Of a DNA stretch of 21,588 nt, positions 1-20,697 are shown one piece after another (position 1 is the first letter of the stretch; every line of letters starts with the position of its first letter). The stretch comes from a virus. Its lineage: Duplodnaviria; Heunggongvirae; Uroviricota; Caudoviricetes. Where the stretch lies: the IMG/VR virus record IMGVR_UViG_2563366997_000002. One strand, 5' to 3'. Under the pieces are notes generated by a model. The model was not told where the DNA came from. It did not search any database and worked only from the letters and a program-made list of their open reading frames with translations. A program made the position numbers and the translations under genes.

Positions 1-393
1 TCATATTACTGGATAATCATCATCATCCTTCCCTATCCGATTGATAACGAATGTCACTACCCCGACAACTGTAACATCATCCAGGGCCTCACCTTCCAAC
101 GCTTCACCGTCTCGTGTAATAAATGCCCGGCCCATAATTTTTGCAAAATCAGTGCCGCCGCCGTATTGAATTAAAACGGTATCTCCTTGCTTTGGTTTTA
201 CGAAGCAATCCACTACGGCATAGCCGGTTTCTGTTTGTACTATCCGAGTATTGGGGCCGGTACCGCAGAGTGAATCAACGGTCAGACGCCGTTCAACATA
301 GTCAGCAGCTGGCGACGGAAATCCCACGTTATAGCCCTCCGTTTGGGTTGTATAACTGGAACGTGAGCTCATCGCCTTCCTGCGTTGAGACAT
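1..393 (-). CDS. UmuD/ImpA-like S24-family protein (SOS mutagenesis accessory-like)
   Basis: 130-aa ORF whose stop codon is the first 3 bases of the window. Contains GFPSPAADYVE, matching the UmuD/MucA N-terminal cleavage-site region (E. coli UmuD has CGFPSPAADYVE), and a C-terminal VVGVVTFV-type strand pattern like UmuD. The canonical GDSM serine motif is not evident by eye. Nine nt downstream of the preceding small ORF. Confidence 0.6.
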   Translation of the reverse strand: MSQRRKAMSSRSSYTTQTEGYNVGFPSPAADYVERRLTVDSLCGTGPNTRIVQTETGYAVVDCFVKPKQGDTVLIQYGGGTDFAKIMGRAFITRDGEALEGEALDDVTVVGVVTFVINRIGKDDDDYPVI

Positions 394-402
394 CCCGGAA
401 TG

Positions 403-561
403 TCAGTGCTCTATCCACTGGTTAGCCTGGCGCGGTGACCATATCCAGTTAACTTTTGCGAGTTCCCGGATAAAACCGGACGTTGTCACGGTGCGACGGC
501 CATTAGGCTCAATGACAATTGCCTGACGCCAGGCTATTTCGATATCTGAGTTTCGCGGCAT
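403..561 (-). CDS. small hypothetical protein (52 aa), first gene of an SOS-box operon
   Basis: ORF track gives 403..606, but that start would place the LexA box inside the coding region. The internal ATG at 561..559 has a strong SD (GGAGGTG, 5-nt spacer) and lies just downstream of the box. Gene order recalls impC-impA; that is inference. Confidence 0.4.
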   Translation of the reverse strand: MPRNSDIEIAWRQAIVIEPNGRRTVTTSGFIRELAKVNWIWSPRQANQWIEH

Positions 562-579
562 AACTTCACCTCCCGAAAA

Positions 580-599
580 TACTGTTTTTATATACAGTA
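580..599 (-). promoter_or_regulatory. LexA (SOS) box
   Basis: Minus-strand sequence TACTGTATATAAAAACAGTA is a perfect CTGT-N8-ACAG LexA operator with AT-rich spacer, about 20 bp upstream of the 52-aa ORF start. Confidence 0.7.
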
Positions 600-1103
600 G
601 ATTCATTAAGAGATCTGATCAATACAGGTTCCAGCTATCAATCAGGAACACTGAGGAGGAAACCAGTCACCTTTTAGCCTCTGATATTGGTTTCACTTAG
701 TGATTATGTTGTCTATGTGCCAACTATGAACTATCTTTTCTCAAAACCTGCTACTGCAAAATGGATATAAGATGTCACAGACGGACTTGCTGATTGTTGT
801 TTTTACTCTGGGCATTTTAGCCTTTGGCTATTCCATATGGTTCATTTCGAACAGAATACTTTGCTCTATATTTCATAGACTTACAAAGAATATATGAATT
901 GGGATGGTATAGACCCAAATTCATGGTCATTGCCCCTCGACGTCGGAAGGTACTTACAGATCATCTTCGCTCTTAACCTATCACATCGGCACCTACTCCA
1001 TGATGTAACAGCTCAGACCAGAAATATCTGGAAGCTTTAGGCATATTCTTGGAAGATAGACGAGCGCAAAGACGCACACAGCAATGATGTTATGTAGTAT
1101 TTT

Positions 1104-1135
1104 CCCCTTGAGTGTGCCTGCTCAAGGGGGTTTTT
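1104..1135 (+). terminator. putative Rho-independent terminator
   Basis: ccccttgag / loop tgtgcctg / ctcaagggg gives a 9-bp GC-rich stem, followed by TTTTT. The U-tract is present only in the plus orientation. Confidence 0.45.
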
Positions 1136-1150
1136 ATCGCCGTATTGTAC

Positions 1151-1219
1151 TGGCAAATATTTGTAAATAGTCTTCACCCCCACGCCTGTCACATCGGCCA
1201 CACGCGACTGGACAGGCGG
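1151..1219 (-). pseudogene. remnant of a serine DNA-invertase C-terminal HTH (second copy)
   Basis: In frame immediately after the stop of the 1220..1414 ORF, the minus strand reads PPVQSRVADVTGVGVKTIYKYLP. This is about 80% identical at nucleotide level to the HTH segment at 3160..3215 and has no start codon or catalytic domain. Confidence 0.35.
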
Positions 1220-2856: not shown

Positions 2857-3079
2857 GGGTTGATTTAACACGTAGCTCCTTCAGGTGACCCTGTTTTCGT
2901 ATCAGTATCAAGTCACCATCAATATCATCATATCGAATACTCAGCAGCCTTCCAGCGCTTAAACCCGTGTGAAAAATTAACGCCCACAAGTCAGCCCATG
3001 TATCTGAGATGGAAACAAGATTGCTGTTAATAGTTAAAAATTGCTCAAAACTTATTGTTTTCTTACCGTTCACGAACAA
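2846..3079 (-). pseudogene. tyrosine-recombinase-like gene, 5' part (split by IS4)
   Basis: N-terminal 78 codons (apparent TTG start at 3079); the reading frame runs into the IS4 end where a stop occurs. See 1220..1419. Confidence 0.5.
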
Positions 3080-3156
3080 ACCAAACTGTTTTCAAAGCTG
3101 AATGAATTGATTAAGCCAAACGTAACATATCAGGAAAAGTAGTGAAATCTTTGCCT

Positions 3157-3369
3157 TCAAGTCGCCGGGAGGTACTTGTAGATTGTTTTCACGTCCACGC
3201 CTGTCACATCAGCCACCTGCTGCCGGGTAGCGCCGTTCTCCAGCATTCTGCGGCACCGCTCCACCACTTCTTCAGTCATTATCCGGCGGCGGCCGCCGAC
3301 TCTCTCCTGCTCCATCGCTGCGGACCGACTCGGATGCATTCGGCAAATTCTAGGCCGTGATTTTTCCAA
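3157..3369 (-). pseudogene. serine DNA-invertase (Hin/Gin/Pin/Cin family) C-terminal HTH remnant
   Basis: C-terminal 45 aa, GGRRRIMTEEVVERCRRMLENGATRQQVADVTGVDVKTIYKYLPA, aligns by eye with the Hin C-terminal DNA-binding domain. The N-terminal about 140-aa catalytic domain is absent and the 5' end overlaps the upstream 266-aa gene. Confidence 0.6.
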
Positions 3370-6231: not shown

Positions 6232-6519
6232 GTGTTTAAACGGTTAAATAAGAGAATGATTTTAATAAATAAATACACCCCTCCAACGCAGGAAGATTTA
6301 GCCAGACTGAAATCCGCACTAAATTACTCCGGAAACCAAATGGCAGGGCTCGCAGGTGTAGCCAGCGATAGCCAATGGCGGAAATACACTGGCGGAGAGA
6401 GCCCCAGGGTAATGTCAAGACACATACTGTTTTATATTGCAGCTCAGCTTGTTCTGTCTGATGAGCAACTTAACAATGTAATAAATAAAATGCGCGATAT
6501 TGGCGCGGAGATAAAATAA
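6232..6519 (+). CDS. small XRE-like HTH protein (putative regulator), coupled to the acyltransferase
   Basis: 95 aa from a GTG start (87 aa from ATG at 6256). The segment LNYSGNQMAGLAGVASDSQWRKYTGGE resembles a Cro/C1-type helix-turn-helix. Its stop overlaps the acyltransferase start (ATAATG). AT-rich. Confidence 0.5.
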   Translation: MFKRLNKRMILINKYTPPTQEDLARLKSALNYSGNQMAGLAGVASDSQWRKYTGGESPRVMSRHILFYIAAQLVLSDEQLNNVINKMRDIGAEIK

Positions 6520-7610
6520 TGCTTGGCCTAATAAGGTTTTTTTTGGCATCGTGCGTCATTGCTTTTCACTTAACGGCTCGCATACCTGCACTTGGCAACT
6601 TTGCAGTGAATTGCTTCTATGTTATTAGTGGTTTTTTAATAACATACATTTTGCATGAAACATACAAGTTCAACTTCTCTATGTTTTGGAAAAATAGAAT
6701 ACTGAGGTTATTCCCGGCATATATATTTTTTCTCGTCATGGGCTTTCTTATTATAAAATTAATTCCATCCGCAAAGGAATTCCACTCAAACTGGACAGGC
6801 AATTTCTTACCTGGAGATTTATTAGGAAACCTCTTAATCTTCCCCTGGGCTTTCCTTTCTGATAATGCTGTAGCAAATCCATTCGGTGCCTTTTCATCCA
6901 TTTATCACTTTGCTATTGATGGTAATAGATTCAGAATAGTCACATCATCATGGTCAGTGGGTGTTGAGATAACATGTTATTTTTTATTGTGGCTTTTCAT
7001 AGCCCGAAATAAATTTACAGCCATTACGTCGATTCTGCTTTCACTGCTTTATCATGCTTACGTATATGTAGTACACCATTCTTTTGATATGGCGTATTTC
7101 CCATTCCTTGCTGCAACACTTCCTTTTAGCATGGGTTCTCTGGGTTATTTTGCCCATAGAAAGTTCAAAGCTATGTATCTTTCTCCACACAAAGCTTTTT
7201 TAATAACATTTATTTGCATCGGGATTTTTATTACCAATTGGCATTTATATACAATTAATCCATTAGGTCAGTACAACATAATACTTTACTACACCAATAA
7301 TGTAATAGCATTGTTTACAACCCTGGTATTATTAAAAATAAAGACAAACATACATCTTGAGAAAATACTCAAGTGGTTTGGTGACCTGGCCTATCCAATT
7401 TTTCTTTGTCAATATTTTGGTGGATTTCTAGCATGGCTTGCTATTGGTGGTGAAAATCGTGGCTTATCCATCTTTTTATTAGGCTACCCAATATCAATTG
7501 CACTTGGGATCGTTTGTGTAATATTAATAGACAAGCCACTAATTAAAATTAGAGCAAAAATAAGGGCGGACGCTCAAAGCAAAAATAATCAGGAAAACTC
7601 TTCAAGGTAA
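6519..7610 (+). CDS. acyltransferase family 3 (OafA/Oac-like) integral membrane O-acyltransferase
   Basis: 363 aa, strongly hydrophobic with multiple predicted TM segments. N-terminal region FHLTARIPALGNFAVNCFYVISGFLITY is typical of AT3 acyltransferases. Markedly AT-rich relative to flanks; opposite strand to the structural genes. Confidence 0.8.
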   Translation: MLGLIRFFLASCVIAFHLTARIPALGNFAVNCFYVISGFLITYILHETYKFNFSMFWKNRILRLFPAYIFFLVMGFLIIKLIPSAKEFHSNWTGNFLPGDLLGNLLIFPWAFLSDNAVANPFGAFSSIYHFAIDGNRFRIVTSSWSVGVEITCYFLLWLFIARNKFTAITSILLSLLYHAYVYVVHHSFDMAYFPFLAATLPFSMGSLGYFAHRKFKAMYLSPHKAFLITFICIGIFITNWHLYTINPLGQYNIILYYTNNVIALFTTLVLLKIKTNIHLEKILKWFGDLAYPIFLCQYFGGFLAWLAIGGENRGLSIFLLGYPISIALGIVCVILIDKPLIKIRAKIRADAQSKNNQENSSR

Positions 7611-9075: not shown

Positions 9076-10220
9076 GTGTAGTTCACCTCACCACGAACAG
9101 CCAGCTCCCCAACTCCCGGCTCAATATTCGCAGAAGGCGACACAAGGATATAACCTGAAGTACCGGCAACATCCCCTATCGCACGGTTGAGATCTGAAAG
9201 GTAAATTTTCCCTGTGCCGAGCGGGTTAGCGGATTCAAACAATACCCCGTCAATCGCATCAGCAATGGCCGCAGTCGTTGCGCTGTCGGCATCAGATATC
9301 CCGCCTATTTCAAAATCGATAACGCGTTCGATGGGAGAGCAGACATAGTTAAGGGAAGTAACCGGCGCAAGCGGATACATATAATCGGCAACTCTCCCCT
9401 GATCCCCGGTGGCTTTTACAGCCCCCCACTCTTCCAGTTGAGAGACACCGTCAGTTCCTACAGGGAATCCATGATTGGTTTTATCATCGCCGTCGCACAT
9501 GATGTAAATCACCACGGTACCCGGCCCCATCCCCCGGCGCCGTATCCATGCCCTGGTAATCCCCGACACGGATAAAGCCCAGCTTTTATAATCAGTGTCA
9601 CTCCCGCCCTGCGGGGGATTCTGATACGCCAGCAGACCACGTAATCGGAAATCCTCTTCACTTTCAATGTTGGCGCCGCCGGTGGCGGGCTCAATCAGCG
9701 TAACCGAGCTGTCTATGCCGGGGGCATTAGCATCCAGTGTAAGAATGGTGCCAGCATCGGCATTTCCGGAAGCGCCTCCTCCTGTCACATCGTCTGTGAT
9801 ATCCGGCAAAACCGCTGTTACAGCAACCGACGCACTGCCAGCAGTGTTTATCGTTATGGCATCATCGGTTGTGTACTGGTAACCATCATCACGGTTTAAC
9901 ACCGCCCCTTTTGACAGTGTTTTCCCCGGCGTTCCGGTAACGGTCGCCGCCGGAGAGCGTGCTGCCGTTGCGGCTTTTCGGTAAATCTGCTTTAGCGCCA
10001 TCCATCCGGCAAGCCACTCATCGGTAGAGGTGAAAGGCGTGCTCTGACGGGCAATATAATCCAGGTAGGCGTAGTGCAGATGGGCCATGCCCGCATCCAT
10101 ATCAGCGAGCACCTTAAGGTTGCCAAACCGTAACAGCGCGCCAACACTTTCAAGCTCTGCCTGCATAAACTGGCGATTCTCCTGCCGGAGCTCGCTCAGT
10201 GTTTTCCGCTTAAATGGCAT
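9072..10220 (-). CDS. baseplate J-like protein (Mu gp47 / P2 gpJ family)
   Basis: 382 aa; size and position after the gp46-like gene; translationally coupled to both neighbours. Confidence 0.75.
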   Translation of the reverse strand: MPFKRKTLSELRQENRQFMQAELESVGALLRFGNLKVLADMDAGMAHLHYAYLDYIARQSTPFTSTDEWLAGWMALKQIYRKAATAARSPAATVTGTPGKTLSKGAVLNRDDGYQYTTDDAITINTAGSASVAVTAVLPDITDDVTGGGASGNADAGTILTLDANAPGIDSSVTLIEPATGGANIESEEDFRLRGLLAYQNPPQGGSDTDYKSWALSVSGITRAWIRRRGMGPGTVVIYIMCDGDDKTNHGFPVGTDGVSQLEEWGAVKATGDQGRVADYMYPLAPVTSLNYVCSPIERVIDFEIGGISDADSATTAAIADAIDGVLFESANPLGTGKIYLSDLNRAIGDVAGTSGYILVSPSANIEPGVGELAVRGEVNYT

Positions 10221-10659
10221 TATTCAGTTGCTCCCATAGCCAGAAGAATTTGAACTCCTGCCAGTCCCCCGCCGGCGGCAAATACCGGATGATGAGGTTC
10301 AGCCTATTCGGGAAAACAATCTCTGACTGAGCCTCTATCGCTGCTGCAATACCATCCGACTTCATCCAGGCCAGAGCCTCTTCGGCATAATCTTCAGCTC
10401 TCATCGCCACTTCGCGCGTCAGTTTTTCACGCCGCAGTAGCCACAGCCTTGAGCCAATATTCCGGTCGTTGTCCAGATCCCCCCACCAGCCGCGGCGGTC
10501 AGTTCCTTCATAATCATCATCAGCGCGCGCCAGTCCGTCAGTAAACAAACTGATAATTATGGCCGTGTGCATATCATTCTCAGATGTCAGTACGCCGTTA
10601 CCGGTTTGCCAGTCAGCATGAATGGCATCCACATCCCAGAATGAGGAAATATCACTCAT
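10210..10659 (-). CDS. Mu gp46-like baseplate protein (GP46 family)
   Basis: 149 aa, acidic, between spike and J-like genes; overlapping start and stop with neighbours. Confidence 0.65.
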   Translation of the reverse strand: MSDISSFWDVDAIHADWQTGNGVLTSENDMHTAIIISLFTDGLARADDDYEGTDRRGWWGDLDNDRNIGSRLWLLRREKLTREVAMRAEDYAEEALAWMKSDGIAAAIEAQSEIVFPNRLNLIIRYLPPAGDWQEFKFFWLWEQLNNAI

Positions 10660-20607: not shown

Positions 20608-20697
20608 TGGCGGAGAGAGGGGGATTTGAACCCCCGGTAGAGTTGCCCCTACTCCGGTTTTCGAGACCGGTCCGTTCAGCCGCTCCGGCATCTCTCC
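20608..20697 (-). tRNA. serU: tRNA-Ser (anticodon CGA)
   Basis: The reverse complement is a 90-nt class II tRNA (GGAGAGATGCCGGAGCGGCTGAACGGACCGGTCTCGAAAACCGG...GGGGGTTCAAATCCCCCTCTCTCCGCCA) with a 7-bp acceptor stem, CGA anticodon, long variable arm and encoded CCA. Confidence 0.93.

Follow-up and report, generated by a model that had tools for sequence, protein, structure and literature searches.

A mosaic prophage spacer with two probable small genes: a 41-codon membrane-peptide frame and a portable candidate small RNA module

The interval and its genomic setting

Between a umuD-like gene and a run of invertase relics, the 21,588-nucleotide viral sequence analysed here (called the window, at its full length) carries an SOS box, a 41-codon open reading frame (ORF), a compact module ending in a terminator hairpin and the decayed 3' ends of DNA invertase genes (Table 1). 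The initial annotation described positions 607-1140 as AT-rich, non-coding DNA free of ORFs of 60 aa or more. The composition and the lack of longer frames are confirmed: the GC fraction is 0.34-0.45 over 601-1100 against about 0.5 in the flanks, a 67-aa ORF stops at 606, and the largest ORF overlapping 607-1140 is 54 aa long (1037..1201, minus strand). The non-coding label stands only in part, as it fails for about 100 nt at roughly 905-1005, the decayed 3' end of an invertase gene, and for 1141-1201, another such end. On balance, we read the interval as a mosaic prophage spacer with two independent plus-strand small genes, the cassette of the 41-aa ORF and a small RNA (sRNA) module. It would be the accessory ('moron') spacer that terminates a defective prophage of the E. 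coli HS type.

Table 1. Features of the spacer and its immediate borders, in window coordinates
Feature	Position	Strand	Description
LexA (SOS) box	580..599		TACTGTTTTTATATACAGTA; sole CTGT-N8-ACAG match in the window
LexA box and promoter of the frameshifted umuD-like gene	580-645		
Lineage-specific cassette with the 41-aa ORF	about 646-935		~290 bp
Candidate ORF promoter	709..737	+	TTGTCT (709-714), 17-nt spacer, TATCTT (732-737); start predicted near 744
41-aa ORF	772..897	+	short polar N-terminus, one ~20-residue hydrophobic helix, basic C-terminal tail
Imperfect hairpin	894..924	+	10-bp inverted repeat from the ORF stop codon, without T-run
Decayed Hin/Pin-type DNA invertase 3' end	905..1005	-	..GADVIG.. 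and ..ICKYLP.. in two different frames
Self-contained sRNA module (candidate)	1020-1135	+	~115 bp; promoter-like islands, invariant unpaired stretch, terminator
Promoter-like islands	1020..1057	+	AGAAATATC, TGGAAG (1029-1034), 17-nt variable spacer, GAAGAT (1052-1057)
Predicted sRNA	1064..1135	+	~72 nt; 5' end predicted from the -10 position
Second invertase 3' remnant	1141..1201	-	..ADVTGVGVKTIYKYLPVQYGDK.. (Hin/Pin C-terminus); ORF 1037..1201

Over positions 560-1200 the window matches the E. coli HS chromosome, and about a dozen other strains, with 100% identity. Its identity to HS continues through the next 5.8 kb, interrupted only by a 1437-bp insertion at 1420-2856. The insertion is made of a 1426-bp IS4 and an 11-bp target duplication (CTCCACTGGAG), and it interrupts an integrase-like gene (140 aa, phrog_19751) whose HS counterpart is intact. 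The HS interval is situated close to one end of a defective prophage, with a frameshifted 'DNA polymerase V' (umuD-like) gene and, farther out, a tRNA-like gene to its left; to its right come a hypothetical gene of 140 aa, an invertase fragment and genes of tail-fibre type. The same spacer occurs in an e14-like element of strain MRSN346595, where both of its neighbours, the umuD-like gene and a Pin/Hin-type recombinase, are intact. Close to the far end of the window, a minus-strand tRNA gene (20611-20697, 57 bits with Rfam) may mark the other boundary of the prophage.

The left border is formed by a umuD/HumD-like gene (1-606, minus strand) that a frameshift has cut into 403..606 and 1..393. 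Its identity follows from NCBIfam HumD/UmuD matches and from the RefSeq name 'DNA polymerase V, frameshifted'; no umuC-like partner is visible on the umuD side within the window. The LexA box is located 19 nt upstream of the ATG of this gene (561-559, minus strand), a start with a good SD. Klebsiella phage phi9.2 has an identical box next to its umuD, and E. coli phage 733R5 a similar one at the corresponding position. Alignment of the window to these two phages shows the umuD promoter region and the 3' sRNA module to be common, with other sequence replacing about 646-935, a stretch that we consider on this ground to be a replaceable cassette. Because the box persists beside umuD where the ORF cassette is missing, it belongs to umuD rather than the small ORF. 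Confined to that cassette is a minus-strand promoter-like site at 703-730 (TTCATA-16-CATAAT, 9/12), back-to-back with the candidate ORF promoter and facing the umuD-like gene from upstream of the LexA box.

Two invertase ends lie farther to the right. The upstream relic was recognized from reverse-strand translations and from a 14-nt repeat (977-990 and 1185-1198). In Klebsiella-type relatives this upstream copy still reads GVKTIYKYFPAG up to its stop codon, and makes a 50-nt direct repeat with the downstream invertase end. Relatives with an intact invertase have its stop codon inside the terminator hairpin, and the recombinase CDS of the MRSN346595 element ends at the equivalent of window ~1125. 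The duplicated ends that bracket the sRNA module as direct repeats point to a footprint of recombination between phage invertase genes. A third invertase fragment (3157-3369, minus strand; ..ATRQQVADVTGVDVKTIYKYLPAT) lies past the IS4 and the integrase-like gene, and the invertase gene is thus broken here into several relics.

A 41-codon frame in a replaceable cassette

The ORF encodes exactly the peptide first reported for it, MSQTDLLIVVFTLGILAFGYSIWFISNRILCSIFHRLTKNI, and a local BLAST of 607-976 against the collected loci recovered 31 loci of 90-100% identity, all arranged like the window. Since every copy is at least 90% identical, there has been little time for frame decay, and the ORF could be a chance open frame in a recently spread AT-rich spacer whose functional parts are the sRNA module and the umuD promoter only. 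We see this as a distinct possibility, though not as a likely one, in view of how the 126 nt of the ORF have fared: among 30 distinct homologues the frame of 41 codons is intact in all 30, with neither stop nor indel, while the flanks do have indels. These homologues encode 17 peptide variants.

The substitutions point the same way. The ORF region has 25 variable columns, 12 of them at codon position 3, an excess so modest that it could suit a chance frame and is suggestive, not decisive. The frequent changes (807, 861 and 867) fall on third codon positions and are synonymous, the polymorphisms of the first two thirds of the ORF are synonymous save three single-sequence changes, and the replacements are mostly conservative (I/L/V/M, S/T, R/K) and clustered in the C-terminal tail, which argues against a frame open by chance. 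So do the start region (768-788) and the hexamers of the candidate promoter, invariant in the 30 homologues, and the pN/pS ratio, 0.35 in frame versus ~1.05 and 3.3 in the remaining two plus-strand frames, a comparison whose weight is limited by the close relatedness of the sequences (90-100% identity). One antisense frame, which contains stops, gives a similar ratio of 0.32.

Conservation of the peptide frame across homologous regions was the check proposed at the outset, and its result supports the suggested small membrane peptide gene. We regard it as moderate evidence for coding, not as proof. The ORF is probably a narrowly distributed small membrane-protein gene, and its product would be a single-pass membrane peptide, probably translated and under mild purifying selection.

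The cassette would drive this gene from a weak promoter of its own, a candidate for which lies at 709-737. The element was read from the sequence and agrees with the consensus at 8 of 12 positions, under the scan threshold of 9; in contrast with its invariant hexamers, spacer positions 717, 722, 723 and 726 vary among the 30 distinct homologues. Translation would start from a poor site, as the weak SD of the initial annotation proves to be nothing but a GGA at 7-9 nt upstream, another trait compatible with a chance frame. A role as 3' stabiliser is conceivable for the hairpin that begins at the ORF stop codon, as is a chance origin: changes at 915 and 923 keep G-U pairs, and single sequences break pairs 916 and 920. 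The stretch 897-1103 contains no other terminator, so that the ORF transcript probably ends at the hairpin 1103-1130 of the sRNA module.

Database searches placed the peptide among no known proteins. A word-indexed search of 5.8 billion proteins gave no homologue beyond near-identical copies, and an exhaustive HMMER search of 1.84 billion representatives, together with tblastn of phages and plasmids, none outside the ORF-bearing relatives. RefSeq has no gene annotated at the ORF in any annotated relative examined. Both the silence of annotation pipelines and the want of homologues elsewhere would agree with a chance frame, as would two database entries that are frameshifted, 35-aa versions of the peptide. 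Two longer entries of 158-180 aa (P0003 and P0004) include the 41-aa peptide; they come from gene calls that read TGA as sense, i.e. from the wrong genetic code, and are therefore artefacts.

Pfam, PHROGs and PADLOC hold no match to the peptide, and NCBIfam gave only a sub-threshold one to the Ecr family (NF033861; 14.4 bits versus a cut-off of 33, E 0.023, residues 1-25). Small regulatory membrane proteins include MgrB-like ones, and the peptide resembles Ecr and MgrB-like proteins in its size class of about 40-50 aa, its one transmembrane helix and its short charged tail. Membership of the Ecr family was nonetheless rejected, as the match stays below the cut-off, concerns the hydrophobic N-terminal half only and amounts to compositional similarity. 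As a guess, the peptide might be a small membrane regulator or an exclusion-type moron.

The ORF had also been compared to a type I toxin locus, possibly with an antisense RNA. The peptide would then be a membrane-damaging toxin, checked either by an undetected antisense RNA or by the adjacent sRNA, a reading that we hold to be very improbable. Enterobacterial type I toxins are represented by TisB, DinQ, Hok, Ldr, Ibs, ShoB and ZorO. Like them, the peptide is small (<60 aa), hydrophobic and borne by a mobile element, with one helix and a basic tail that fit in size and shape. Unlike them, it comes without cognate antisense RNA, structured leader or family match. A scan for minus-strand promoters and terminators in or after the ORF found none, the one promoter-like site of the minus strand (730 to 703) is directed away from it, the mRNA is not unusually structured (z -0.91 for 744-930 and -0.76 for 646-940), and Pfam, NCBIfam, PHROGs and PADLOC returned no toxin family. 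The small RNA gene 130 nt downstream could at first sight provide the antitoxin, but this candidate was rejected: it is encoded on the same strand as the ORF, its unpaired region forms with the ORF mRNA a duplex that 30/300 shuffled controls equal, a chance-level pairing, and most sRNA loci are found without the ORF. The nearby SOS box recalls TisB and DinQ, which are SOS-controlled; here, however, the box is that of umuD, present also where the ORF cassette is missing. Neither the toxin locus nor the antisense RNA was therefore borne out.

A conserved module with a candidate small RNA

The terminator hairpin first placed at 1104..1135 is real in sequence, being a 12-pair stem at 1103-1130 with TTTTT at 1131-1135, and a scan of 300-1600 found two terminator-like sites versus 0.9 expected from shuffles. 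It is not specific to the ORF locus, however, but closes an independent module which occurs without the ORF in most relatives. All versions of this module have a common anatomy. They read AGAAAyATC-TGGAAA, 17 nt, GAAnAT, 7-8 nt and GCGCAAAGACGCACACAGCAATrATGTyAT.., followed by a U-rich tract, a GC-rich hairpin and T5-8. In the predicted sRNA of the window, the successive parts are a 5' mini-hairpin (GCG/CGC), the invariant unpaired stretch ACACAGCAAUGAUGU.., the U-rich tract, the terminator (1103-1130) and U5 (1131-1135), with a fold of -24.3 kcal/mol (z -2.35).

The simplest reading of this anatomy is a weak promoter followed by a ~72-nt RNA that has an unpaired seed and ends in an intrinsic terminator. 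Transcription would start about 7 nt past the conserved GAAnAT element. In 12 representatives differing at more than 8 columns, the promoter-like islands are at least 90% conserved at a constant spacing of 17 nt, and the first half of the spacer is variable. Each hexamer agrees with the sigma-70 consensus at 3/6 positions, so that promoter function is inferred; the promoter scan makes no call, and the spacer is itself partly conserved. This leaves room for a longer RNA, for transcription that depends on an activator, or for an RNA that is only a processed 3' UTR, and the RNA might alternatively be cut from the 3' UTR of any upstream gene, here the 41-aa ORF. Other readings were tried and rejected: sigma-54, sigma-32 or sigma-E promoters at the islands, on spacing or on the -10 element (by eye, against their consensus sequences), and a short ORF within the sRNA (1084..1170), which lacks an SD, has the terminator inside it and is conserved in a manner that is not codon-like.

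The conservation of the module is directly observed. Among 30 distinct sequences, 1069-1124 has zero variable columns versus about 20-24% in the ORF and the flanks, and the core CGCACACAGCAAT is common to every family member collected, partly by construction of the search. Most variants fold in a way that leaves this core unpaired. With a covariance model based on 13 versions, a single copy is detected in the window (1031-1136, 133 bits).

The terminator stem contrasts with this stretch. On a model-based alignment of 45 distinct sequences, 97.4% of the cells of the helix are paired and 7 of its 9 pairs have changed on both sides. The observed covariation score was reached by 0 of 500 shuffles and no slid register comes close, on counts from a model-fitted alignment, which favours the modelled structure. 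The covariance-model alignment was used because a plain MAFFT alignment mis-aligned the alternative terminators, and RNAalifold recovered only 6 pairs from it. At least five stem types exist, including CCCCUUGAG/CUCAAGGGG, CCCCUUAAG/CUUAAGGGG, CCCCCUGAG/CUCAGGGGG, CCCCCGG/CCGGGGG and CCCCGGC/GCCGGGG. The stem is thus changeable, but the ~40 nt preceding it are almost frozen; the 5' mini-hairpin, with 83.9% of cells paired, is weakly supported.

The terminator loop (window 1113-1118) is GUGCCU in two stem types (CCCCUUGAG.. and CCCCCGG..) and is replaced only in a third (CCCCGGCUCUUUGCCGGGG), a conservation unusual for a plain terminator. A likeness of the terminator to CRISPR repeats was judged superficial (by eye), and mimicry of such repeats was rejected.

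A structure-maintained terminator with a U tail and a conserved unpaired seed, both seen here, are among the marks of trans-acting sRNAs of the Hfq/ProQ type. An RNA with the invariant unpaired stretch GACGCACACAGCAAUrAUGU, a U-rich tract and a Rho-independent terminator would have the anatomy of a chaperone-dependent base-pairing regulator, from which we infer that it may act in trans.

Distribution of the module and possible functions of its RNA

When the whole interval is compared by BLAST with phage and plasmid sequences, only its last 120-190 nt match, in unannotated DNA of phages of Klebsiella and E. coli, of Klebsiella plasmids and of Mydo, a lytic Proteus phage of 145 kb. Prophage contigs in which the module recurs and the ORF is missing number more than 100. 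Viral contigs of IMG/VR contain at least 120 stretches with the 17-nt core pattern CGCACACAGCAATNATG (one free position), and filtering of the core-pattern matches listed left 57 distinct versions. The covariance model gives 104 matches in 100 sources (103 in 99 sources besides the window). The module is present in 45 of 5426 complete E. coli genomes; further hosts are Klebsiella and Raoultella, in addition to two divergent copies. A 16-base pattern searched on genome contigs returned mostly chance matches, with the full module in 6 of the loci listed, three of them in Raoultella.

In its other contexts, the module starts 29-69 nt past the stop codon of a large same-strand ORF, and several of these ORFs encode GDSL/SGNH-hydrolase proteins. 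In the strictly lytic phage Mydo (Vequintavirinae), it lies at record positions 121870-121978 (locus 3012-3117), just behind a 71-aa ORF resembling the C-terminal end of a GDSL hydrolase and just before the L-shaped tail-fibre gene. The -35-like element of Mydo, TTGAAA, is nearer to the consensus than those of the prophage copies. Different genes can take the upstream place, which is in some cases empty or occupied by a dead gene; the module thus behaves as a portable cassette and not as a part of one conserved mRNA. On these sequence comparisons, we consider it a portable, strongly conserved candidate sRNA gene.

Such recurrence directly behind large same-strand ORFs could have a simpler cause: with recombination-prone invertase ends on its flanks and weak promoter hexamers, the module might be merely a shared terminator or 3' UTR, copied by recombination along with tail-fibre and invertase gene ends and regulating nothing. 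We consider this unlikely. A bare terminator leaves unexplained the ~40 invariant nt upstream of a hairpin whose stem is free to change, the upstream genes are unrelated to each other, and the module is kept behind the 41-aa ORF, behind dead invertase fragments and in a lytic phage.

Some elements hold two module copies. In the e14-like element of MRSN346595, two diverged copies in opposite orientation, at 10191-10293 (minus strand) and 6459-6564 (plus strand), bracket ~3.6 kb, the one abutting the invertase and the other behind a GDSL/SGNH-hydrolase gene. Two copies were also seen in loci L007, L022, L062, L115 and L037, the last with one very weak match (28 bits).

The candidate sRNA was compared with known RNAs at several levels. 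Rfam 15 has no family at the gathering threshold in the module, the tRNA gene near the far end being the sole match at threshold in the window, and a search of 500-1500 at E values up to 10 yielded nothing above 16 bits (all E >3). Exact sub-sequences of the sRNA matched only unrelated eukaryotic papers in the searchable literature. A likeness of its 5' part to the 5' end of MicA, judged by eye, was rejected as superficial, with no Rfam match to MicA.

Prophages are known to encode base-pairing sRNAs, such as DicF of Qin and the anti-sRNAs AgvB and AsxR of EHEC prophages. The module resembles prophage sRNAs as a short RNA gene in an enterobacterial prophage accessory region, spread by phage mosaicism, and as a conserved unpaired stretch followed by a Rho-independent terminator. 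Other prophage sRNAs are C0293 of e14 and svsR of prophage NC-SV, the latter located at the 3' end of cI (PMC12803456); unlike svsR, the module is found behind tail-fibre-type genes or invertase ends. Identity with C0293 was rejected, since alignment to the K-12 sequence stays under shuffled controls, and the homologous pinE-mcrA spacer of K-12 e14 (106 nt) lacks the module.

A second class to consider is that of 3'-UTR-derived sRNAs, which arise from an internal promoter or by processing (DapZ/MicL and CpxQ/SroC types). The module shares with them its short distance from a same-strand stop codon and a terminator common with that gene, and in the window it lies within the 3' UTR of the 41-aa ORF. 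It differs from them in that its upstream gene is interchangeable.

As to targets in the 21.6-kb window, a duplex scan and a complementary-pattern search found only the antisense strand of the sRNA itself. The hairpin has no U-tail on the minus strand, so the transcript of an intact invertase must traverse the module in antisense, and a cis-antisense effect on the invertase mRNA is therefore possible. However, an ORF of at least 100 aa converges on the module in about 9 of about 95 such loci, most of these ORFs being invertases by their C-termini, and the rest keep a remnant only. Since so few loci keep the converging ORF and the module also occurs without an invertase, a role in trans is likelier than one in cis.

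Going further, we propose quite tentatively, and with more doubt than confidence, that the module belongs to an undescribed family of phage-borne regulatory RNAs. In prophages of Klebsiella, Escherichia and Raoultella it would travel as a cassette behind invertase ends and behind receptor-binding and tail-fibre genes, besides occurring in a lytic phage of Proteus, and it would reprogramme a conserved host mRNA (for a surface receptor, the capsule or the O-antigen, for example) to the benefit of the phage. Where an invertase reads through, it may also be an antisense brake on tail-fibre switching. If the module is transcribed, the conservation of its seed is such that one host target should be readily found.

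For the annotation of prophages, the interval teaches that an 'empty' 500-bp spacer can contain two genes and two gene relics. The 41-aa ORF would be one more entry among the poorly charted small membrane proteins of prophages. The recurrent adjacency of the module to tail-fibre, tail-spike and invertase genes suggests that host-range hardware is linked to host gene control. If the module is transcribed, it would represent a widespread and unannotated sRNA family, absent from Rfam and common to temperate phages and one lytic phage of clinically important Enterobacterales.
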